Shown here: one piece after another, positions 8,018 through 62,729 of the stretch | How positions within the stretch are numbered: the first letter of the stretch is position 1 | Layout: every line of letters starts with the position of its first letter | NCBI GenBank assembly: GCA_001873745.1 | Contig: MNZQ01000116.1 | Coordinates: forward strand, 308-64,307 | Origin: Syntrophaceae bacterium CG2_30_58_14 | Lineage (GTDB): Bacteria > Desulfobacterota > Syntrophia > Syntrophales > UBA5619 | DNA: 64,000 bases | Direction of reading: 5' to 3' | The notes under the pieces: generated by a model | What the model saw: the letters and a program-made list of their open reading frames with translations, nothing else | Told to the model about the DNA's origin: nothing | Database searches by the model: none | Position numbers and translations under genes: made by a program

Positions 8018-8043
8018 GGGGACAGATTTCAAATCTGTCCCCC
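8018..8043. repeat. Family-A palindromic repeat GGGGACAGATTT-C-AAATCTGTCCCC(C)
   Basis: Perfect palindrome read directly; 17 nt upstream of the infA ATG. Confidence 0.9.
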
Positions 8044-8066
8044 TGACGTTTCCGATCCCCGCCCCC

Positions 8067-8091
8067 GGGGACAGATTTCAAATCTGTCCCC
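8067..8091. repeat. Family-A palindromic repeat, second tandem copy
   Basis: Identical 25-mer 49 nt from the first copy, 9 nt after the map stop codon. Confidence 0.9.
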
Positions 8092-12359: not shown

Positions 12360-12384
12360 GGGGACAGATTTCAAATCTGTCCCC
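12360..12384. repeat. Family-A palindromic repeat
   Basis: GGGGACAGATTTCAAATCTGTCCCC. It lies 12 nt after the rpsH stop and 18 nt before the rplF ATG; followed on the transcript by ACUUUUGG. Confidence 0.9.
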
Positions 12385-16301: not shown

Positions 16302-16330
16302 GGGGGGACAGATTTCAAATCTGTCCCCCC
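16302..16330. repeat. Family-A palindromic repeat (extended G6/C6 ends, 29 nt)
   Basis: GGGGGGACAGATTTCAAATCTGTCCCCCC; 4 nt after the rpsS stop and 37 nt before the rplV ATG. Confidence 0.9.
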
Positions 16331-33446: not shown

Positions 33447-33523
33447 TGGCAGGCCAGGAGGGACTTGAACCCCCAGCATCCGGATTTGGAGTCCGGCGCT
33501 CTATCCATTAGAGCTACTGGCCT
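33447..33523 (-). tRNA. tRNA-Trp (anticodon CCA)
   Basis: Minus strand AGGCCAGTAGCTCTAATGGATAGAGCGCCGGACTCCAAATCCGG...GGTTCAAGTCCCTCCTGGCCTGCCA folds as a cloverleaf with encoded CCA. Confidence 0.93.
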
Positions 33524-33555
33524 ATCCGATCGATCAAGGCGGCGCCTCTTTCCGC

Positions 33556-33705
33556 TTATTTCGTTTCCCGGTGCAGCTTATGGGATCGGCAGAATTTGCA
33601 GTATTTTTTCATCTCCAGCCGATTCTGCATGGTCCTTTTGTTCTTGGTCGTCGTATAATTCCGCTGTTTGCAATCCGTACAAGCCAATGTAATGATATTT
33701 CTCAT
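33556..33705 (-). CDS. rpmG: 50S ribosomal protein L33
   Basis: [49 protein letters not shown], 49 aa. Confidence 0.93.
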
Positions 33706-33726
33706 AATTAAACCACCTAACCTGAA

Positions 33727-33802
33727 TGGAGCCCACGACCAGGATCGAACTGGTGACCTCATCCTTACCAAGGATGTGCTCTACCGACTGAGCTACGTGG
33801 GC
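33727..33802 (-). tRNA. tRNA-Thr (anticodon GGT)
   Basis: GCCCACGTAGCTCAGTCGGTAGAGCACATCCTTGGTAAGGATGAGGTCACCAGTTCGATCCTGGTCGTGGGCTCCA. Confidence 0.93.
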
Positions 33803-33917
33803 TGGTTGCTTCTTTAAACCGAAGCGCCACTTTCCCCCGCCGCCGATCAGAATCCGCGATGATCATGATCGGCTGCGCATTCCTCGGGGAAGCAAGCAGC
33901 CCCATACCGAACAAAAA

Positions 33918-33993
33918 TGGAGCGGGAAACGGGATTCGAACCCGCGACCCTCAGCTTGGAAGGCTGACGCTCTAGCCACTGAGCTACTCCCGC
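33918..33993 (-). tRNA. tRNA-Gly (anticodon TCC)
   Basis: GCGGGAGTAGCTCAGTGGCTAGAGCGTCAGCCTTCCAAGCTGAGGGTCGCGGGTTCGAATCCCGTTTCCCGCTCCA. Confidence 0.93.
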
Positions 33994-34041
33994 TTATCGC
34001 CATGCGCCGCTTCTTAGAAAGAGATGTTCGCCGCGGCAAAC

Positions 34042-34126
34042 TGGTGGAGGGGGGAGGGTTCGAACCTCCGTAGGCTTCGCCGGCAGATTTACAGTCTGCT
34101 CCCTTTGACCGCTCGGGAACCCCTCC
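34042..34126 (-). tRNA. tRNA-Tyr (anticodon GTA, long variable arm)
   Basis: GGAGGGGTTCCCGAGCGGTCAAAGGGAGCAGACTGTAAATCTGCCGGCGAAGCCTACGGAGGTTCGAACCCTCCCCCCTCCACCA. Confidence 0.92.
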
Positions 34127-34156
34127 ATTAGTGACCCATCGGGCAAAATATCTTCC

Positions 34157-34232
34157 TGGAGCTGGCGATGGGACTTGAACCCGCAACCTGCTGATTACAA
34201 ATCAGCTGCTCTACCGATTGAGCTACGCCAGC
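34157..34232 (-). tRNA. tRNA-Thr (anticodon TGT)
   Basis: GCTGGCGTAGCTCAATCGGTAGAGCAGCTGATTTGTAATCAGCAGGTTGCGGGTTCAAGTCCCATCGCCAGCTCCA. Confidence 0.93.
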
Positions 34233-34324
34233 ACTCCTAAACATTGAATATCAAAGATAATCTTCGCAAAAAAGAGCCGCGCCGCCACCCAGGCGGAGGA
34301 ATGCCCCCCTCTGTGAAACAAGGG

Positions 34325-34353
34325 ACACTAATTTTTATGTCTTCGTTTGTCAA
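34325..34353 (-). promoter_or_regulatory. Candidate strong sigma-70 promoter of the tRNA/rpmG/secE-nusG cluster (TTGACA-N17-TAGTGT with an A/T-rich UP-like tract)
   Basis: Minus strand reads AAAAAATAATAAAAAAAATC-TTGACA (34353-34348), 17 nt, then TAGTGT (34330-34325); about 85 nt upstream of the first tRNA. Confidence 0.5.
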
Positions 34354-34486
34354 GATTTTTTTTATTATTTTTTCAGGTCTTGCCCTTGTTAACGTCCGGA
34401 CACGCACCCTCACTTTGGGTTCTCGTCAGACAGGCCAATCGGTTTCCATAAAAAAATGGCCAGGTATCGCCGCGACTCCGCAAACG

Positions 34487-34921
34487 CTACCCGTCAAACT
34501 TCGGCAGCGGCATCTTGATGAACGGAACGCCCTCTTCCCTCAAGGTTTCTTCTTCGCTCCCGGTGGCGGTCCCGCGGATGTTTCTGCTCTCTTCCTCTCC
34601 ATGATGGATCCGGAGGGCGACTTCCGCAAACTTGTCGCCCACGTTATCGAAGTTCTTATGGATGTGCTCCTGCAACGCACGGATGAGTTTCAGCGGCGGC
34701 TCGCCGTTCTGCGTCGTTGTCGCAGCGGAACGGTTGTCCCGTCCCCTGACCACGGCAGAAGAAGGGATCAACGCCGTCTCCGTATTTCCGCAGACGGGAC
34801 ACGCGATGAGTTTTTGCAGCCGCTGTTCATCGAAGGCGCCCCTGTCCTTGAACCAACCTTCAAATTTATGGCCGTCACGGCATTGGAGATCGTAGATGAT
34901 CACGCCTCTTCTCCTCGTCAT
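34487..34921 (-). CDS. DUF1178 family protein (N-terminal zinc ribbon)
   Basis: IIYDLQCRDGHKFEGWF...CPVCGNTE...NVGDKFAEVALRIHHGEEESRNIRGTATGSEEETLREEGVPF matches my recollection of the DUF1178 pattern. An alternative GTG start at 34903 would give MIIYDLQC. Confidence 0.7.
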   Translation of the reverse strand: MTRRRGVIIYDLQCRDGHKFEGWFKDRGAFDEQRLQKLIACPVCGNTETALIPSSAVVRGRDNRSAATTTQNGEPPLKLIRALQEHIHKNFDNVGDKFAEVALRIHHGEEESRNIRGTATGSEEETLREEGVPFIKMPLPKFDG

Positions 34922-35005
34922 TGACCTCTATGGTATTTTTATCATGATGATCCTAAAAAATAATGGTGGACAATCGACTCCAAATTGGTTATGGAGGGCG
35001 CGTGT

Positions 35006-35082
35006 CGGGATGTGGCCCAGCTTGGTAGGGCACTGCGTTCGGGACGCAGGAGTCGCGCGTTCAAATCGCGCCATCCCGACCA
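35006..35082 (+). tRNA. tRNA-Pro (anticodon CGG)
   Basis: CGGGATGTGGCCCAGCTTGGTAGGGCACTGCGTTCGGGACGCAGGAGTCGCGCGTTCAAATCGCGCCATCCCGACCA. Confidence 0.93.
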
Positions 35083-57675: not shown

Positions 57676-60600
57676 TTAAATCCTCCGGCAGCCGGGGCCG
57701 GTCAGGCTGCTTCGCCCCCCGGTCCCGGGGGTGACCTGGATCTGCGTGCCGATGCGCTCCTTGAGCGCCGGGACGTGCGAGATGACGCCGATCAGCTTGC
57801 CTTCCTGGTGCAGTCCCGCCAGCGTCGAAAGCGCCGTTTCGAGGGTCTCGTCGTCGAGGGTTCCGAACCCTTCATCGAGGAAGAGAGAATCCACGCGCAC
57901 ATTCCGGCTCGCCATCTGCGAGAGGCCGAGCGCCAGAGCCAGGCTGACGATGAAGCTTTCGCCGCCGGAGAGATTCTTCGTGGAACGGATCTCGCCCGCC
58001 TGATAGTTGTCGATGACGTTCAGTTCCAGCGGTTGCAACGGGTCGCGGATGAGCATGTAGCGGTCCGTCATCTTCTTTAGCTGGAGGTTGGCATGCACCG
58101 TCATCCTCTCGAAGGTCAGCCCCTGGGCAAAGTTCCGGAATTTCTTGCCGTCAGCGGAGCCAATGAGCAGATGCAGGTCGTCCCAACGGGCGCACTCCTT
58201 TTTCCGGGCGTCCAGGGTCCGGAGGCGATCCTGCTGCTTTTCCTTCAATTTCTCATTTTCACCCAGACTGTTTGTGATTCCGCCGATATCGACCCGGATC
58301 TGTCTTAAGCTTGAATCACAGGCGCCGATCGTTTCCCGAAGCGTCTCGACGGGCTGATCCGTCAAGCGTCTCTCCCGTTCGGCGGCCAGCGCCTCCGATC
58401 GGTCCCTCCGGCGGGCGTCCAGTTCCGTTTTCTCCTTGACCAGGGCCTTTTCCCGCGCCGCGAGACTCTCCCGCGCCTCTTCGGTCAGGCAGGCGGACCG
58501 ATAGCCGGCCTCGTCCTCGAACCCCGCCTTGATGATCCGCTCCGTTAGGTTCGCCTCCGCCTGCGCCAGTTCCCCCGCCCGCTTTCCCGTCTTTTCCTGC
58601 AACAGCGCGATTTTCTCCTTCAGGGCGCCGATCTCTTTTTCCATTCGCCCGTACTCTTCGCGCGCCTTTTCAAAAACCTTTCCCGCCCGCTCCACAGCCT
58701 CCGCCAGCCACTTTTCCTCCTGGTCGGCGTTCCTCTCCCCGAAGAGTTCCCGGCGGGAGGCGCTAAGGGATTGAACCTGCATGAGCAGGTCGTCGCGATC
58801 CTTGCGCCTTGCGGCGAGATCCCTTTCGAGGCTCGAAAGCAGCGCGTTGTCCTTGTCCAGCGCGGCCTTCAGATCGCCGATCCCCTTCTCCGCGGCGGTT
58901 TTTTCATCCTGCCTTGTCTGCCACGCCTCTCTGCGCCCGGTGAGCTCCCGCAACAGGGCGTCGATTCCGGTTACGGGAATCTGCGTGATCCCGAAGGGTT
59001 CCACTCCCTTGAGCGCAGCCGTGCGGGCCTTTCGAGCCTCCTCCCCCAGGATTTCCTGCTCCCGGATCAACCGTTCATACTCCCGACCGGCCGTCTCCCG
59101 TTGATGCCGCGCCTCCTGCAAGGCCTTGTCCGACTTCTCGGATCCCGTCCTCAACTTCTCCAGGGCCGTTTGCGCCGCCTTCTCTCTTTTGCTTTTCTCT
59201 TCCGCAACGGAAACAATGCCGGAAGTTTCGGCCATTTTCAACCGGACATCGGCAAGAGCCGCGCATATGGGGACAGATTTAAAATCTGTCCCCATATGCG
59301 CGATACCCAGCTTCAGCAGCGCTTCACCACACGCCTTTTCGTCCGCATCCCGTGCGGCCCTTTTCTCCCCCATCTCTTTTTCCGCATGCCCGATCTCCGC
59401 CGCTGTTTTAACCTGCTCGGTTTCCAGTCTTCCCAGCGTCTCGGAGGTCTTTTTGTATTCGGCCTTTCTCTTTTTTAGCCCCGCTTCCGCCCTGTTCAAT
59501 TCGGGGAGATTGCCCTTCGCGTAAGGATGATCGGTGGCGCCGCACAGGGGGCACGGCCTGCCGTCCTCCAGCCGCTTCCGTTCCTCCTCGAGGTCGCGGA
59601 TCCGTCCAAGGAGAGCGACCTCCGTTTCGAGGGTTCCGATTCCCTTTTCCAGGACCGCTTTTTGCCCCGAGCAGGACTGGATCTCACCCGAGATCTTCTG
59701 ATGACCGTTATGGAAGGCTTCAAGGACCGTTTTCAGGCCTTCCAGCGCCCGACCCGTCTTGTCGATCCGGTCGATCATTTCGCCCGCTTGAATCAGAAGA
59801 CGCTCGCGCTCCTTCAGCGCATCCACCCGATCGCGCCACCGGCCGATGTCAGATCCTTTGAGGATGGCCGCGAGCTCAACGGTTAGACGCCGAAGTTCCG
59901 TCTGCCCCTTCTCGAATTCCCGGCGGGATTTCTCATGGTCGGTTTCGAGCTTGCCGCAGGTTAAACCGGCCGACGCCTTTTTCCCGTCTGCCGCGGCAAC
60001 CGCTTTCTTCGCCTTGATCTGCTTCGCCTCAGAGTCGCGAAGCGACTCGAATTCCCTTGCGATTACGGCGAGGTTGGTCAAAAGCGCGGCATCGGCGGCG
60101 TGTCCAGCCAGGTAGTCCCGGATCGCTTTTAGGTCGCCCTGCGCCTTTTTCAGCGCCCGTTCGAGATGTTCGATGTTGCTTTTAAATCCCCTCCCCTGCC
60201 GCTCGCCATCCCCGATCGCCTTGACCTTCTCTGCGACCTGTTTTTTCTGCTCCCCCAGCCTGGCATCGAGCTCGCGCACCTTCTTGAGGAGCTCCGCTTC
60301 GACGACCTGCCGGGAGCGCGCCTCGGTCAAACCGGCTTCCGCGGCCTGTTTCCGATTCAGCGCAGCGGCGCATGCCTTCTCCTTTTCGGGCCGTGTGGCG
60401 GCGGCGCCGGCGAGCTCCCCGGTTTCACTCCCCTGCTGAATCCGCAGCGCGGCCACCCCCCGGTAATCGCCTTCCAGACCGAGGGCCTTGCGGGATTTCG
60501 CCAATCGGATCGATTCCGGCGCAAAGGCAAGCCTGCGCTCCTCGAAATCCAGCAGCAGCCCGTCCAGTTCCGTGATCTCCCTCTCCAGGGCGGCCACCCG

Positions 60601-61350
60601 ATCCAGCCAGAGGGCCGCGTTGCGAAGGCCTTCGACCCGGCCCTCCATTTCCGCTTCCAGTGACCGCTTCTCCTTCAGCACGTTTTGCAGATTTCCCTCT
60701 TCCTCATCGCTTAAAACCTGGATTCCCTGCAGTTCCGCCTGCAACAGCTCAAGAAGGTTCCGTTCTTCCGCGTGGCGCTCGTGAACCTTCATGGAGATTC
60801 GACTGTAGATTTCGGTCCCGGTGATCTGCTCCAGGATGGGCGCCCGCTTGTCGGGATCGGCCTGGAGAAAGGCCGTGAATTCCCCCTGGGCGAGCAGCAT
60901 CGAACGGGTGAAGCGCTCGAAGTCCATGCCCGTTACCTTTTCAATGAATGCCACCACCTGGGTGATCTTCGATTCCAGGACGGCCCCGGAATCGGCGTCG
61001 GCGATTTCATGCCTGGCCTGCTGCAACTCGCCTTCAGGGTGTTTCCGGGCGCGGCGCTGACTCCAGTGGCAGCGGTACCGGCCTTTCTGCGTCTCGAAGG
61101 TCACCTCGGCAAAGCACTCACCGGTCTGGCGCGACATGATCTCGTTGGCGCTTTTCGTCACCCGGTCCAGGCGGGGCGTACGGCCATATAAACCAAGGCA
61201 GACGGCGTCGAGGATGGTCGTCTTTCCGGCGCCGGTCGGGCCGGTAATCGCGAATATTCCGTTTGACGCATAGTCCGGATGGGTGAAATCCACCTGCCAT
61301 TCACCCGCGAGGGAATTCAGGTTTCGGAACCGCACGCCGAGGATTCTCAT
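57676..61350 (-). CDS. sbcC: Exonuclease SbcC (SMC-like ATPase of the SbcCD nuclease)
   Basis: MRILGVRFRNLNSLAGEWQVDFTHPDYASNGIFAITGPTGAGKTTILDAV (Walker A), long coiled coils, zinc hook CPLCG, C-terminal LSGGESF and LFLDEGFGTLD. ATG at 61350 overlaps the sbcD stop by 4 nt. Confidence 0.92.
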   Translation of the reverse strand: MRILGVRFRNLNSLAGEWQVDFTHPDYASNGIFAITGPTGAGKTTILDAVCLGLYGRTPRLDRVTKSANEIMSRQTGECFAEVTFETQKGRYRCHWSQRRARKHPEGELQQARHEIADADSGAVLESKITQVVAFIEKVTGMDFERFTRSMLLAQGEFTAFLQADPDKRAPILEQITGTEIYSRISMKVHERHAEERNLLELLQAELQGIQVLSDEEEGNLQNVLKEKRSLEAEMEGRVEGLRNAALWLDRVAALEREITELDGLLLDFEERRLAFAPESIRLAKSRKALGLEGDYRGVAALRIQQGSETGELAGAAATRPEKEKACAAALNRKQAAEAGLTEARSRQVVEAELLKKVRELDARLGEQKKQVAEKVKAIGDGERQGRGFKSNIEHLERALKKAQGDLKAIRDYLAGHAADAALLTNLAVIAREFESLRDSEAKQIKAKKAVAAADGKKASAGLTCGKLETDHEKSRREFEKGQTELRRLTVELAAILKGSDIGRWRDRVDALKERERLLIQAGEMIDRIDKTGRALEGLKTVLEAFHNGHQKISGEIQSCSGQKAVLEKGIGTLETEVALLGRIRDLEEERKRLEDGRPCPLCGATDHPYAKGNLPELNRAEAGLKKRKAEYKKTSETLGRLETEQVKTAAEIGHAEKEMGEKRAARDADEKACGEALLKLGIAHMGTDFKSVPICAALADVRLKMAETSGIVSVAEEKSKREKAAQTALEKLRTGSEKSDKALQEARHQRETAGREYERLIREQEILGEEARKARTAALKGVEPFGITQIPVTGIDALLRELTGRREAWQTRQDEKTAAEKGIGDLKAALDKDNALLSSLERDLAARRKDRDDLLMQVQSLSASRRELFGERNADQEEKWLAEAVERAGKVFEKAREEYGRMEKEIGALKEKIALLQEKTGKRAGELAQAEANLTERIIKAGFEDEAGYRSACLTEEARESLAAREKALVKEKTELDARRRDRSEALAAERERRLTDQPVETLRETIGACDSSLRQIRVDIGGITNSLGENEKLKEKQQDRLRTLDARKKECARWDDLHLLIGSADGKKFRNFAQGLTFERMTVHANLQLKKMTDRYMLIRDPLQPLELNVIDNYQAGEIRSTKNLSGGESFIVSLALALGLSQMASRNVRVDSLFLDEGFGTLDDETLETALSTLAGLHQEGKLIGVISHVPALKERIGTQIQVTPGTGGRSSLTGPGCRRI
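59260..59302. repeat. 43-nt perfect palindrome with the family-A core, in frame inside sbcC
   Basis: CGCGCATATGGGGACAGATTT-A-AAATCTGTCCCCATATGCGCG, translated as (I)[14 protein letters not shown] within the coiled-coil region. Confidence 0.9.
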
Positions 61351-62597
61351 ACTTTTCTCCGCTCCGGCTGTTCGGCCATCGGGTCCGCTTCCCGCAGGGA
61401 GACCACCGCCTCCCGGTATGCGGCCCAAAGCTCCGGCCGCTGCTCTTCCGGAACTTCATGCGCCTGAAGGCAGCGCTGGAACACCTCCGTCACGTCCAGG
61501 TCGGCAAGCGTTTCCTCCGCAGCCGTCCCGCTCATGGCGCGTTCAAGAACCCGGTTGTTTTTAATGCGGAGAATCTCGATGCCGCTCCCGGCAACGGCAT
61601 CATCCAGGCGCTCGCGCAGACTGCCGGCAACCTCATCCCCTTCGTAGATGATCTCCAGCCAGGCGCTGCTCCCCCGCGATTTCAGGCCGTCGATCTCCCG
61701 GGCGATGGCCGACCAATCCCCCCGCAGGGTCTTGAGCTCCTGGAACCTGGGAACCGGTATATTCGCGACTTGCGGCAAATGACCCGAAAACTCCACGCGA
61801 ACGACGCACTTGTCCTGCTCGGCCTCCCCGAAACCGATCGGCAGCGGGGAACCCGAATAGCGGATGAAGTCCGATCCGCCCACCCTCTGCGGGATGTGAA
61901 GATGCCCCAATGCCAGGTAGTCGATACATTTGGGAAAGACATCGGTTCGAACCTGGGCGAGCGAGCCGATATAGAGCTCCCGCACACCGTCGCCCTCCAC
62001 CGTCCGGCCGCCTGCCGCAAACAGATGCCCCATGGCGACAATCGGAACCGATTTTTTCAGCAGGGCGCGTTTCTGTTCGGCCGCTTCGCACACCCGACGG
62101 TAATGCGCCCTGATCCCCTCGATGATCTTTCTCTCCTTCTCCTCGACGCTTTCACCGGCCTCGGCGGTGCGGATCTCGCGGTCCCGGAGATAGGGGATTG
62201 CGCAGACAATCAGCCTTGGCTCCCGGTCCGGCCCGCGGATAACGATCAGTTCATCCGCGGGAGGATCGGCGGCGCACCCCACAACATGGACGTTGAGGCA
62301 TTTCAGGAGCTCCCGGGGCGCATTCAGGAAAGAGGGCGAATCGTGATTCCCGGCGGTCACCACCACGTGGCGGTTGGAAGAGACCGCCATGCGACACAGG
62401 AAACGGTAGTAGAGCTCCTGGGCATGGTTGCCGGGGGTGCTGTTGTCAAACACGTCCCCCGCCACCAGCAGAACATCGATGTTTTCCTCCTCGGCCCGAA
62501 CGGCCAACCAGTCCAGAAAGGCATCGAACTCCCCGTACCGCTCGCGGCCATAAAGCGTGCGGCCGATGTGCCAGTCGGATGTGTGCAGAACCTTCAT
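61347..62597 (-). CDS. sbcD: Exonuclease SbcD (Mre11-type phosphoesterase)
   Basis: MKVLHTSDWHIGRTLYG...LLVAGDVFD...VVTAGNHDS...GHLH, from ATG 62597-62595. Confidence 0.92.
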   Translation of the reverse strand: MKVLHTSDWHIGRTLYGRERYGEFDAFLDWLAVRAEEENIDVLLVAGDVFDNSTPGNHAQELYYRFLCRMAVSSNRHVVVTAGNHDSPSFLNAPRELLKCLNVHVVGCAADPPADELIVIRGPDREPRLIVCAIPYLRDREIRTAEAGESVEEKERKIIEGIRAHYRRVCEAAEQKRALLKKSVPIVAMGHLFAAGGRTVEGDGVRELYIGSLAQVRTDVFPKCIDYLALGHLHIPQRVGGSDFIRYSGSPLPIGFGEAEQDKCVVRVEFSGHLPQVANIPVPRFQELKTLRGDWSAIAREIDGLKSRGSSAWLEIIYEGDEVAGSLRERLDDAVAGSGIEILRIKNNRVLERAMSGTAAEETLADLDVTEVFQRCLQAHEVPEEQRPELWAAYREAVVSLREADPMAEQPERRKV

Positions 62598-62729
62598 CGC
62601 TCTCCTTTTCACACCGTTTTGCCGGTCAAGCCTGACGGCTACGTAAAAAGTCAGGGAGCGCATCATACCACAGAAGCCGTTCCGGGAGGCCGAAAAAAGG
62701 GGCGGGCAAAAGGAAATGATATTTTTTTC

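Follow-up and report, generated by a model that had tools for sequence, protein, structure and literature searches.

A dispersed palindromic repeat in the reading frame of sbcC, probably a recurrent and tolerated passenger

The sbcC gene of Syntrophaceae bacterium CG2_30_58_14 carries a 43-nt perfect palindrome in frame. We consider it probable (about 0.78) that this palindrome is a copy of a dispersed, mobile, REP-like repeat (core GGGGACAGATTTNAAATCTGTCCCC) that is now part of the sbcC frame as a recurrent and tolerated passenger. All positions below refer to the window, the whole 64,000-nt stretch of DNA that was analysed.

A perfect palindrome lies within the sbcC reading frame

The features of the sbcC locus are as follows.

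57676 to 61350, minus strand: sbcC, 1224 aa from ATG (Pfam AAA_23 and SbcC_Walker_B; exact match to OIP90615.1)
61347 to 62666, minus strand: sbcD, overlapping the sbcC start (Pfam Metallophos and SbcD_C)
59539 to 59553, minus strand: CPLCG zinc hook (aa 600-604, from the translation), which the structure model puts at the tip of the helical hairpin
59260 to 59302, no strand assigned: 43-nt perfect palindrome, a 25-nt core with a 9-nt arm on either side (read directly)
59269 to 59293, no strand assigned: 25-nt core GGGGACAGATTTAAAATCTGTCCCC, member of the dispersed family, encoding GTDFKSVP on the minus strand
59294 to 59302, no strand assigned: arm extension CGCGCATAT (coding, in the minus-strand reading), specific to the sbcC copy of the window
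59260 to 59268, no strand assigned: arm extension ATATGCGCG (coding strand), from DNA comparison with related alleles
59269 to 59310, minus strand: predicted non-helical loop, codons 681-694, interrupting the C-terminal coiled-coil helix (AlphaFold2)

The gene product has the Pfam head domains of SbcC, the CPLCG motif at aa 600 and predicted antiparallel helices around the hook, and the gene directly follows sbcD. Reading positions 59260 to 59302 gave CGCGCATATGGGGACAGATTT-A-AAATCTGTCCCCATATGCGCG, a perfect palindrome centred at 59281, and translation of the minus-strand ORF 57676-61350 showed that the sbcC frame passes through it uninterrupted, both as claimed in the original prediction. The encoded peptide comprises aa 684-697 of SbcC. 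Its predicted placement in the coiled-coil arm past the CPLCG hook was borne out, but the distance of about 70 residues was not, as aa 684 is 84 residues past the first hook Cys (aa 600).

The AlphaFold2 model of aa 470-730, built with a 73-sequence alignment, has a helix at 617-680, a loop at 681-694 and a helix at 695-729 (mean pLDDT 92), and places the element peptide in a predicted surface loop that would break the SbcC coiled coil. The loop lies about 80 residues beyond the zinc hook; a conserved Pro and a conserved Gly are part of its ancestral sequence, and the loop length is otherwise invariant among about 100 SbcC homologues. In the 25-member cluster of the window SbcC, the motif is kept in all full-length members listed, one of them with a single substitution (AHMRTDFKSVPIC).

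The palindrome core belongs to a repeat family shared between phyla

The core GGGGACAGATTTNAAATCTGTCCCC has five copies in the window, at 8018, 8067, 12360, 16304 and 59269, while zero are expected from 100 dinucleotide shuffles. An exact-core search placed the four copies outside sbcC in ribosomal-operon spacers.

8018 to 8042, no strand assigned: family copy with centre C, map-infA spacer
8067 to 8091, no strand assigned: family copy, again in the map-infA spacer, 49 nt from the copy at 8018
12360 to 12384, no strand assigned: family copy, rpsH-rplF (S8-L6) spacer
16304 to 16328, no strand assigned: family copy, rpsS-rplV (S19-L22) spacer

As had been noted before, the sbcC core differs from these four copies in the central base only, which is A in sbcC and C in the spacers. 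Three of the spacer copies stand at the positions first given for them (8018, 8067 and 12360), and the fourth starts at 16304, not at 16302.

The exact 25-mer was found in at least 120 genome-contig stretches from several phyla, with 141 exact copies in those loci. The hosts belong to Syntrophales, Gammaproteobacteria, Nitrospirota and others, and include isolates of Marinobacter, Halorhodospira, Desulfurivibrio and Desulfamplus. In-frame copies occur in all three frames in ten other genes, Pfam-verified on both sides of the insert, with hosts that include GlnE, HsdR, RecG, SelB (twice), a NuoG-like and a NuoF-like protein, PMT_2 (twice), cytochrome b, an FAD protein and a spermidine-synthase-like protein (twice). 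The core consists of two 12-nt termini that abut around a single base to form the 25-nt perfect palindrome; core variants have compensated changes in both arms (e.g. GGGGACGGATTT..AAATCCGTCCCC), copies also form tandem and nested arrays, and longer relatives of 145-220 nt are bounded by the same 12-mers (L107).

Around 140 copies we found no conserved flanks, including any tetranucleotide, and direct-repeat flanks were not clearly above chance (2-nt class, 16 vs 8.8 expected; 4-nt class, 4 vs 0.55), with both classes fitting palindromic AT flanks. Plasmids gave one 23-nt match (in a Marinobacter plasmid) and phages none. In the whole window, Rfam at the gathering threshold returned only six tRNAs elsewhere, and the core sequence and its peptide had only chance matches of short strings in unrelated papers of the searchable literature.

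A perfect dyad that is identical in distant phyla could also be a conserved site for a DNA-binding protein (an operator or a parS-like site), which would account for the identity, and core variants that change both arms together are in line with such a site. We consider it highly improbable, as the copies stem from insertions, both in ribosomal-operon spacers and in coding loops, occur in tandem and nested arrays and decay freely, and no linked regulator gene was found beside 120 of them. A LexA/parS-type operator, a CRISPR repeat, an attC site and a telomere-resolvase site were rejected by reasoning, and an origin from a tRNA anticodon arm or T-arm was rejected because the dyad axis misfits a 7-nt loop.

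Empty orthologues hold an unrelated sequence at the site

The orthologues P0003 and P0005 are 88-90% identical, lack the element and carry the family-wide loop GIEAAPEGLAGKVQE. Comparison of the DNA with L001 (P0003) and L003 (P0005) delimited the following block.

59261 to 59300, minus strand: 40-nt block replacing 37 nt (AGGCTGCCCCGGAAGGGCTTGCCGGGAAGGTGCAGGA) of the empty allele

Because the insert replaces ancestral bases, the window protein is only one residue longer than those of the empty alleles (1224 vs 1223 aa); nearly all of 5642 SbcC homologues have 1223 aa. The original prediction had proposed an in-frame copy of a dispersed family, which the empty orthologues uphold, and had explained 14 codons as an element plus a short target duplication, which fails: the orthologue comparison gave a net change of +1 codon where an indel of 13-14 aa had been expected, and no target duplication was found at the sbcC copy or across 140 family copies.

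The barely changed protein length is the single point in favour of reading the palindrome as an assembly artefact or as ancestral coding sequence with no more than a likeness to the repeat. We give this reading next to no credence and regard it as already refuted. The empty orthologues hold an unrelated 37-nt sequence at that place and 24 of the 25 core bases are shared with the intergenic copies, which excludes ancestral coding sequence, while the identical 1224-aa protein has been recorded from 8 contigs in several independent sources (OIP90615.1, Syntrophaceae bacterium CG2_30_58_14), which excludes an artefact.

Other occupied alleles show different replacements. In the +5 aa class (L137, L144 and L133), 12 nt at the same codons have given way to 27 nt, the new junction being T[GT] plus the 25-mer with identical junction codons in the three lineages. 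The junction of the window clade differs from it, so that there are two junction classes about 12 nt apart, and the P0009 allele has a nested block of +14 aa. We also examined the empty site for microhomology to the element; it consists of GTCCC in the A-V-P codons and of AGGTTTCA in the EVS clade; insertion guided by microhomology was judged too weak for a claim.

One SbcC loop is occupied in separate lineages

Occupied alleles are polyphyletic on the SbcC tree, where they fall into at least 6 lineages that include L137, L144 and L133; since this simple neighbour-joining tree does not test recombination, independent gains could be fewer than 6. All element-derived peptides fall at aa 682-697, a site of about 15 residues, in one frame that gives GTD[F/L]KSVP. 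The site is occupied in 6 of 76 metagenomic sbcC loci versus 4 copies in 520 kb of flanks, i.e., it is about 75-fold richer. Most occupied contigs have no copy within 5-8 kb other than that in sbcC, and in L128 and L129 the sbcD-sbcC junction has been invaded as well. Point mutation has produced decayed peptides at the site (GTDFSSFS, GADFNSVT, GTDFTSLP and GTDFKSAS). Since older copies have decayed, the palindrome is not conserved by selection. The repeated occupation of one SbcC loop in separate lineages had been missed in the original prediction.

Polyphyly might also come from transfer, with one or two entries into sbcC followed by spread through homologous recombination or short-patch gene conversion, and the apparent hot spot would then be one event seen many times. 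This is possible, with the odds well against it. The exact same junction codons in three lineages, the one frame everywhere and a neighbour-joining tree without a recombination test are compatible with transfer. On the other hand, the flanks beside the insert are lineage-specific (those of P0057 match the empty sister P0068, and L144 keeps the RSGRI context of its own clade), the centre base of the element varies between sbcC lineages (T, A, C and G), and the junction of the window clade is unlike that of the +5 aa class. Furthermore, the occupied alleles are only about 60-70% identical, which makes them a poor substrate for homologous exchange.

The element may instead prefer, or be kept in, the SbcC loop, since an altered SbcC would benefit a hairpin that SbcCD might otherwise cut. 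The 75-fold enrichment over the 520 kb of flanks, the mostly solitary sbcC copy, the invaded sbcD-sbcC junction and the otherwise invariant loop length point in this direction, and Di Nocera et al. argued that it is no accident to find REPs in repair genes (PMC3733652). Such targeted landing nevertheless appears unlikely. Because the two junction classes are about 12 nt apart, any targeting would be regional and not site-specific; the copies decay afterwards, the element is found in unrelated genes too, and a permissive loop with counter-selection of insertions elsewhere in the coiled coil would give the same picture. Somewhat more doubtful still is the idea that the loop is a preferred landing or retention site of a cross-phylum hairpin element through antagonism with the hairpin nuclease. 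If that were true, insertions in the loop and at the sbcD-sbcC junction would alter SbcCD activity or dosage and spare hairpin intermediates or genomic copies, and a mobile element would, time after time, be altering the very enzyme that keeps it in check.

The palindrome arms appear to have grown in place

Nine palindromic bases on each side lie outside the family consensus and, judging from the alleles compared, appear to have grown in place. The arm extension CGCGCATAT is absent from other family copies, and related sbcC alleles have different self-complementary arms: arm length is 9 nt in the window, 9 nt in P0007 and 11 nt in P0009, all differing in sequence, and ranges from 0 to 11 nt among sbcC alleles. 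Copy-specific arm extensions of at least 4 nt were found in 20 of 142 copies versus 0.55 expected. There is one compensatory pair between the arms of P0007 and P0009. In the right arms, some bases are those of ancestral sbcC (GA of GAG; GCC-GT) and have their complement in the left arm, and the final GCG codon of ATATGCGCG (Ala697) is GAG (Glu) in the empty alleles and in P0001, P0004 and P0006.

In quasipalindrome correction (the Ripley model; Lovett and colleagues), imperfect inverted repeats are perfected as one arm templates the other, and the process is known as a mechanism of point-mutation hot spots. Such arm-from-arm copying is in keeping with the compensatory pair and with self-complementary arms that are specific to their lineage. 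We propose that a template switch during replication would have copied one flank onto the other side of the hairpin axis, overwriting ancestral bases with the length unchanged; the direction of copying is suggested by a handful of alleles. The present case would differ from the known process in that the palindrome of a mobile element is extended 9-11 nt into coding sequence.

As DNA, the 43-nt palindrome is predicted to form a hairpin of 20 stem base pairs and a 3-nt loop (-24.9 kcal/mol, z = -11.9), and the RNA in an 83-nt context has a predicted fold of -49.6 kcal/mol (z = -7.4). In the sequence, no terminator-like T run follows the stem, and an intrinsic terminator was dropped as a reading for that reason. 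The size range of RNase III substrates includes stems of about 20 bp. The hairpin might act in cis, either in the sbcC mRNA (as an RNase III target or a ribosome pause) or as a DNA cruciform cut by SbcCD, and so tune expression or stability. The very stable predicted folds would allow this, as would the stem length that SbcCD needs at minimum to cleave in vitro, 8-16 bp (Connelly et al. 1999, as cited in PMC3733652). We consider such a role quite improbable: complementarity has been lost in older copies at the site, arms vary from 0 to 11 nt between alleles, the stem has no T run after it, the same core occurs in intergenic copies unlinked to sbcC, and the allele is stable in 25 near-identical sequences from different samples. 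With a stable allele and decayed older copies, the earlier suggestion of self-targeted instability or regulation found no support.

Relation to known mobile repeats

All-against-all clustering of 3444 ORFs from 120 loci returned housekeeping families only, and beside the 120 copies no gene family was enriched. In about 1.5 Mb of locus DNA, an IS200-like transposase had no tblastn match (with an approximate IS200 TnpA query), and a six-frame regex for HUH...Y-x-x-NP gave no ORF; a cognate single-copy RAYT (Y1 HUH) gene flanked by the repeats, as REPIN-RAYT systems have, was found neither in the window nor in these loci. Inverted half-site pairs 350-2500 nt apart enclose ordinary genes. As the 120 loci (about 1.5 Mb) yielded no transposase, the mobilising enzyme has to be inferred. 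The sharp-ended hairpin, the lack of target duplication and the TIRYT motif at the start suggest that a RAYT/TIRYT-type enzyme, an HUH tyrosine transposase acting on single strands, may mobilise the family. Indeed, GGGGACAG at both termini is an exact match to GGGG[AT][CG]A[CG], which two papers give as the terminal motif of TIRYT or TnpA_REP subclass 2.1 repeats ('TIRtrons') (Di Nocera et al. 2013, PMC3733652; Quentin et al. 2018, PMC6006769). In TIRtrons, such repeats lie on either side of a Y1 transposase gene whose product has a C-terminal helix-turn-helix domain. TIRYT repeats resemble the present family in that they are moderately abundant, some are self-complementary, they form dimers or clusters, and their motif is common to several phyla. 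Unlike them, the 25-mer has no TIRYT gene beside any copy or elsewhere in the sequence searched, its 12-nt termini abut around one base, and it is absent from the available text of both papers and from their supplements.

The 25-mer also resembles REP, BIME and REPIN sequences, being a short (25 nt, within the 20-40 bp of REPs) hairpin-forming multicopy repeat (5 copies per 64 kb vs 0 expected) that lies mostly in operon-internal spacers or downstream of genes and has no target duplication. It differs in having no GTAG/CGTC tag (its ends are GGGG and CCCC), in being a perfect and not an imperfect palindrome, and in being identical between phyla. REP families are usually lineage-specific. A preprint describes REPIN-RAYT systems as mostly inherited vertically (bioRxiv 10.1101/2022.05.22.493013). 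The identity of the 25-mer between phyla is predicted by no REP model. Intragenic REPs are known, and genes for replication and repair account for many of them; the available part of one source gives by name the repair genes for UvrABCD, RecBCD, DNA polymerase I and error-prone polymerases, and sbcC is not among these (PMC3733652).

Rickettsia palindromic elements, offered earlier as a precedent, are a fair functional analogy for an in-frame palindromic element. They are about 100-150 bp long and confined to Rickettsia. In both cases the element resides in frame in intact genes (here sbcC and ten others) and adds a peptide at the protein surface (Ogata et al. 2000, as cited in PMC3733652). In contrast to them, the 25-mer is unrelated in sequence, readable in three frames and hosted by several phyla. 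Bacterial MITEs such as Correia, ERIC and Nezha can also lie in frame (reviewed in PMC3184786 and PMC10969869). Like the present family, with its relatives of 145-220 nt, they are non-autonomous and have inverted termini; unlike MITEs, the 25-mer has no target-site duplication and no matching insertion sequence known, and is far shorter than described MITEs.

Proposed entry and remodelling of the element in sbcC

In the passenger reading that we prefer, the element would have entered sbcC in one of two forms, about 27 nt long in lineages of the +5 aa class and as a larger nested +14 aa block, still seen in P0009, in the clade of the window. Later deletions between the direct repeats of the element itself would have trimmed the loop to near its ancestral length, and we propose that it was trimmed back because the length of the coiled-coil arm is constrained. 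The element in sbcC would thus be a tolerated passenger peptide and not a regulator. A transposase leaves unexplained the loss of 12-37 target bases at insertion and the same junction codons in three lineages. Both could come from break repair templated from another copy, or from short-patch recombination between alleles.

The phenomenon as such is known: palindromic repeats lying in frame within genes, DNA-repair genes among them, have been documented. What is new is, first, a 25-nt perfect-palindrome family that is identical in distant phyla and whose sequence is absent from the searchable literature; its termini, which match the TIRYT-repeat motif, make it a concrete substrate for testing orphan HUH transposases. 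Second, one SbcC loop has received copies repeatedly in separate lineages, at a density about 75 times that of neighbouring DNA. This recurrence is a natural experiment on site choice versus filtering by selection, and it also probes the tolerance of a Rad50-type coiled coil. Third, the allele series, in which the palindrome appears to grow into coding sequence while deletions would restore the protein length, would be a clear record of hairpin-templated mutation within a gene.

An in-frame palindrome in sbcC

Read directly from the window, 59260-59302 is CGCGCATATGGGGACAGATTT-A-AAATCTGTCCCCATATGCGCG, a perfect 43-nt palindrome through which the sbcC reading frame passes uninterrupted; the window sequence and its translation confirmed the original prediction in both respects. 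The 25-nt core, GGGGACAGATTTNAAATCTGTCCCC, has five copies in the window, whereas none was expected from 100 dinucleotide-preserving shuffles. The centre base is A in the sbcC copy (core at 59269) and C in the other four, the last of which starts at 16304 and not, as had been stated, at 16302.

Window sbcC and the intergenic core copies, the latter all within the ribosomal-protein cluster, in very short spacers between cistrons
57676-61350, minus strand, sbcC, 1224 aa counted from the ATG common to homologues
8018 and 8067, core copies, map-infA spacer
12360, core copy, rpsH-rplF spacer
16304, core copy, rpsS-rplV spacer

The window SbcC has the Pfam domains AAA_23 and SbcC_Walker_B, and the gene next upstream, sbcD, overlaps the sbcC start. 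The protein is exactly OIP90615.1 (MAG Syntrophaceae bacterium CG2_30_58_14). Because it is found on 8 contigs from several sources, and the motif is kept in all full-length members listed of its 25-member 90% cluster (one reads AHMRTDFKSVPIC), the palindrome is not an assembly artefact. Of the intergenic copies, the two at 8018-8091 fill the map-infA spacer, 49 nt apart with 24 nt between them; all four have the centre C on the plus strand and hence one orientation relative to the minus-strand ribosomal genes, and that at 16304 is flanked by additional G and C runs (GGGGGG...CCCCCC). Elsewhere in the window, 33450-35079 holds six clustered tRNA genes, all but one of them on the minus strand.

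Comparison with empty alleles

Among the best 120 of 5642 SbcC homologues, nearly all are 1223 aa long, so that the window protein cannot have gained 14 codons net. The alignment gives L-N-I-x-A-[AV]-P-E-E-R-A-G-K-V-R-E as the family-wide residues at the site, where the window has a different stretch of 17 residues. The homologues P0003 (90% identical) and P0005 (88%) are empty, that is, without the element, and carry a different sequence there, GIEAAPEGLAGKVQE; the repeat is thus not ancestral coding sequence. At the DNA level, the window and the empty alleles have common junctions (GGTATCG left, GGCTCTT right), between which lie 37 nt in the empty allele (AGGCTGCCCCGGAAGGGCTTGCCGGGAAGGTGCAGGA) and 40 nt in the window (CGCATATGGGGACAGATTTTAAATCTGTCCCCATATGCGC). 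Ancestral bases were therefore replaced, with a net change of one codon and no target duplication. On this comparison the palindrome is an insertion, though not a simple one. Of the 14-codon insertion with target duplication proposed originally, the insertion stands, while the gain is a single codon and no duplication was seen; likewise, empty orthologues 88-90% identical were found, but the window protein is one residue longer than they are, not 13-14.

The CPLCG hook occupies aa 600-604 and the palindrome-encoded peptide aa 684-697, 80-84 residues beyond the hook rather than about 70. An AlphaFold2 model of aa 470-730 (73 aligned homologues; mean pLDDT 92, pTM 0.72) predicts helices at 471-497 and 502-595, a hook loop at 596-616, a helix at 617-680, a non-helical stretch at 681-694 and a helix at 695-729. 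Since ancestral residues at the insert position include Gly and a nearly invariant Pro, the insert appears to occupy a pre-existing interruption of the coiled coil. The coiled-coil location claimed earlier is correct for the arm after the hook, but the peptide itself falls in this predicted non-helical interruption.

Decay and probable growth of the palindrome

The 9-nt arms on each side of the window core are not part of the family consensus. Copy-specific perfect extensions of at least 4 nt were observed in 20 of 142 family copies, against 0.55 expected, and arm length varies among occupied sbcC alleles.

Arms of occupied sbcC alleles in the window's clade, with the '+5 aa' class for comparison (left / right; extension per side; palindrome length)
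Window allele: cgcgcatat / atatgcgcg; 9 nt; 43 nt
P0007: ggcagatat / atatctgcc; 9 nt; 43 nt
P0009: acggcagaaat / atttctgccgt; 11 nt; 47 nt
P0006: gcgcatat / atatgcga, last pair mismatched; 7 nt; 39 nt
P0002: 5 nt; 35 nt
P0001: 2 nt; 29 nt
'+5 aa' class (about 27 nt inserted): no arms; 0-1 nt; 25-27 nt

A compensatory pair distinguishes P0007 from P0009. The right arms include ancestral sbcC bases, either the GA of a GAG codon, kept in P0001, P0004 and P0006, or, compared with the empty locus L132, the GCC..GT of A..V codons, and the left arm holds their complement. The simplest reading, inferred from few alleles, is that one flank would have been copied across the hairpin axis, by replication template switch or quasipalindrome correction. 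Such copying overwrites bases without changing length, which would partly explain why the event looks like replacement instead of pure insertion. The window palindrome owes its outermost pair to a change of Glu (GAG, the codon in empty alleles) to Ala (GCG).

Lengths within the window's clade are 1237, 1234, 1232, 1230, 1229, 1227 and 1224 aa. P0009, 14 residues longer than empty alleles, reads NIQAAAE, a half copy (GCACATATGGGGAC), a full copy with its own arms, and SAVRE, which derives from ancestral A-G-E-V-R; P0094 has two full copies plus an additional right half. Deletions between the element's direct repeats (ATGGGGACA...ATGGGGACA) would shorten a stretch of 17 residues to one of 12. 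The return towards 1223-1224 aa fits a constrained coiled-coil arm length, a constraint we infer from the near-invariant length of the SbcC family.

Older occupied alleles encode decayed peptides (GTDFSSFS, GADFNSVT, GTDFTSLP, GTDFKSAS, GIDFKSVP), and P0010 retains a half copy alone. Judged by these alleles, complementarity is freely lost with age, which is evidence against selection for a DNA or RNA structure within sbcC.

Repeated occupation of one site

In a neighbour-joining tree of SbcC (1201 columns, variable site masked), the window's clade mixes occupied alleles with the empty P0003, P0005, P0011-15 and P0018. Further occupied alleles are P0069, P0042/P0047, P0031, P0039 and P0057/P0077, the last pair having an empty sister, P0068. 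A metagenome scan with hook-to-site alignment added the occupied loci L137, L144 and L133/L134. Element-derived peptides in the best 120 of 5642 homologues all lie at aa 682-697, in the frame giving GTD[F/L]KSVP, and none was found elsewhere in the ~1223-aa protein. In three '+5 aa' lineages (L006/L137, L144, L133), 12 nt are replaced by 27 nt at the same codons, the insert being T[GT] plus the 25-mer, with centre bases T, A, T and C; the junction in the window's clade differs. The closely related occupied alleles at L006:12055 and L137 differ solely in the centre base, T versus A, as a palindrome flip or a point mutation would give.

A copy with at most 2 mismatches is present in the 135-nt interval at the site in 6 of 76 metagenomic sbcC loci. 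Elsewhere in these loci, over 520 kb, just 4 copies occur, every one of them directly 5' of sbcC (in L128 and L129), which makes the enrichment at the site roughly 75-fold. At L129:1920-2278 (also L128:20), the sbcD-sbcC junction is filled by three tandem 119-nt units, each opening with an exact 25-mer, directly ahead of the start codon of sbcC; the P0007-type allele there carries the element in the coding loop too. On the P0057 contig (L006:848-8048), a defence-like cluster of a type I restriction R subunit, SIR2_2 and a DUF87/HerA-like ATPase lies upstream of sbcCD.

Several independent insertion events are favoured by the lineage-specific flanks and by the centre bases, which differ; the identical junction codons point to site preference or transfer between alleles. 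The element may target this site, the loop may be the sole permissive landing place where insertions survive, or short-patch exchange between alleles may account for the recurrence. Loop length is otherwise constant in about 100 empty homologues, so ordinary indels are either not tolerated or not supplied, whereas the element is accepted.

It had also been proposed that the palindrome is a site of regulation or self-targeting by SbcCD. The predicted stem is very stable (-24.9 kcal/mol as DNA, -49.6 kcal/mol in RNA context) and comparable in size to RNase III substrates. It is in principle long enough for SbcCD, at least in vitro, where the minimum stem is 8-16 bp (Connelly et al. 1999, cited by PMC3733652). 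However, the window allele is stable in nature (cluster members, 8 contigs), arm length ranges from 0 to 11 nt between alleles and old copies decay, which makes this proposal unlikely. The site enrichment leaves open, at low probability, a functional antagonism between the element and SbcCD, which would be interesting if true.

The repeat family across genomes

A DNA-pattern search for the 25-mer matched at least 120 stretches of genome contigs. Hosts among the matches listed include Syntrophales and other Thermodesulfobacteriota, Desulfurivibrio and Desulfamplus isolates, Nitrospirota, many Gammaproteobacteria (with the isolates Marinobacter sp. ELB17, M. gelidimuriae and Halorhodospira abdelmalekii, and closed MAG chromosomes with several copies each), and MAGs labelled Coprothermobacterota, Chloroflexota, Clostridium and Salibacteraceae. 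Host G+C runs from about 42% to 60%, going by the values apparently built into MAG names such as GWC2_42_11 and GWC2_56_13. The centre base is G in 59, C in 53, A in 16 and T in 13 of the 141 exact copies listed; no conserved flank position and no clear target duplication were found around family copies.

In variant cores both arms are altered together: GGGGACGGATTT.AAATCCGTCCCC (six loci), ..AGATCT.., ..AGAATT.. and ..ACAAATTT... The first adjoins the standard form at L031:6946, L039:3480, L060:1779, L118:2550, L126:5089 and L090:6059, the last being its left half-site alone. Half-sites often lie 10-40 nt from full copies. At L107:2890-4590, the same 12-mers (GGGGACAGATTTAT... and ...ATAAATCTGTCCCC) delimit three composite elements of 145-220 nt, two with a degenerate nested inner copy; either longer MITE-like units can also end in the 12-mers or the 25-mer centre is an insertion target. 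Three low-G+C Deltaproteobacteria MAGs have the same ~60-nt extended palindrome, CCCCCTGTCCCCCTTTTCT + core + ACAGGGGGACAGGGGGAGG (L057:6040, L096:2434, L097:3757), in two of them inside different genes (selB, glnE), so that here the outer arms travel with the core.

Ten ORFs spanning a core copy were verified by Pfam domains that flank the insert: GlnE, a type I restriction R subunit, RecG, SelB (two copies), NuoG/formate-dehydrogenase-like, NuoF-like, PMT_2 glycosyltransferase (two copies), cytochrome b, an FAD-dependent protein and a spermidine-synthase-like membrane protein (two copies). All three frames are used, with peptides including GTD[FL]... and GDRF[QE]ICP; in-frame residence is thus a general habit of the family. 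The PMT_2 copies (L120:6049 and 6493) are 444 nt apart in loops of one gene, with identical 8-nt arms (GAAACAAA...TTTGTTTC), and encode the same 14 residues.

Mobility and relation to known systems

ORF clustering, tblastn and motif scans of about 1.5 Mb found no transposase for the element. Plasmids almost lack the element, and it was not found in phages. Its sharp-ended hairpin and the absence of a target duplication suit single-strand HUH transposition, although HUH enzymes are not known to remove target bases at insertion. Di Nocera et al. (PMC3733652) describe RAYT-like 'TIRYT' genes flanked by inverted repeats having GGGGWSAS in common, some families being self-complementary and arranged as dimers. 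Quentin et al. (PMC6006769) treat TIRYT as equivalent to TnpA_REP subclass 2.1, with the motif GGGG[AT][CG]A[CG], which GGGGACAG of the element fits exactly. TIRYT-type mobilisation is, from this motif, a lead.

Palindromic elements in frame are known from Rickettsia (RPEs) and from REP families. Di Nocera et al. (PMC3733652) emphasise the many intragenic REPs in replication and repair genes (UvrABCD, RecBCD, PolI) and speculate on altered repair; sbcC is not among the genes named in those passages, and the window's 25-mer family is absent from the paper's text and supplements. The element is a new sequence family, whereas in-frame palindromic elements as such were already known. What is unusual is its identity across phyla, the recurrent occupation of one loop in a hairpin nuclease, and the visible growth of the palindrome in place.
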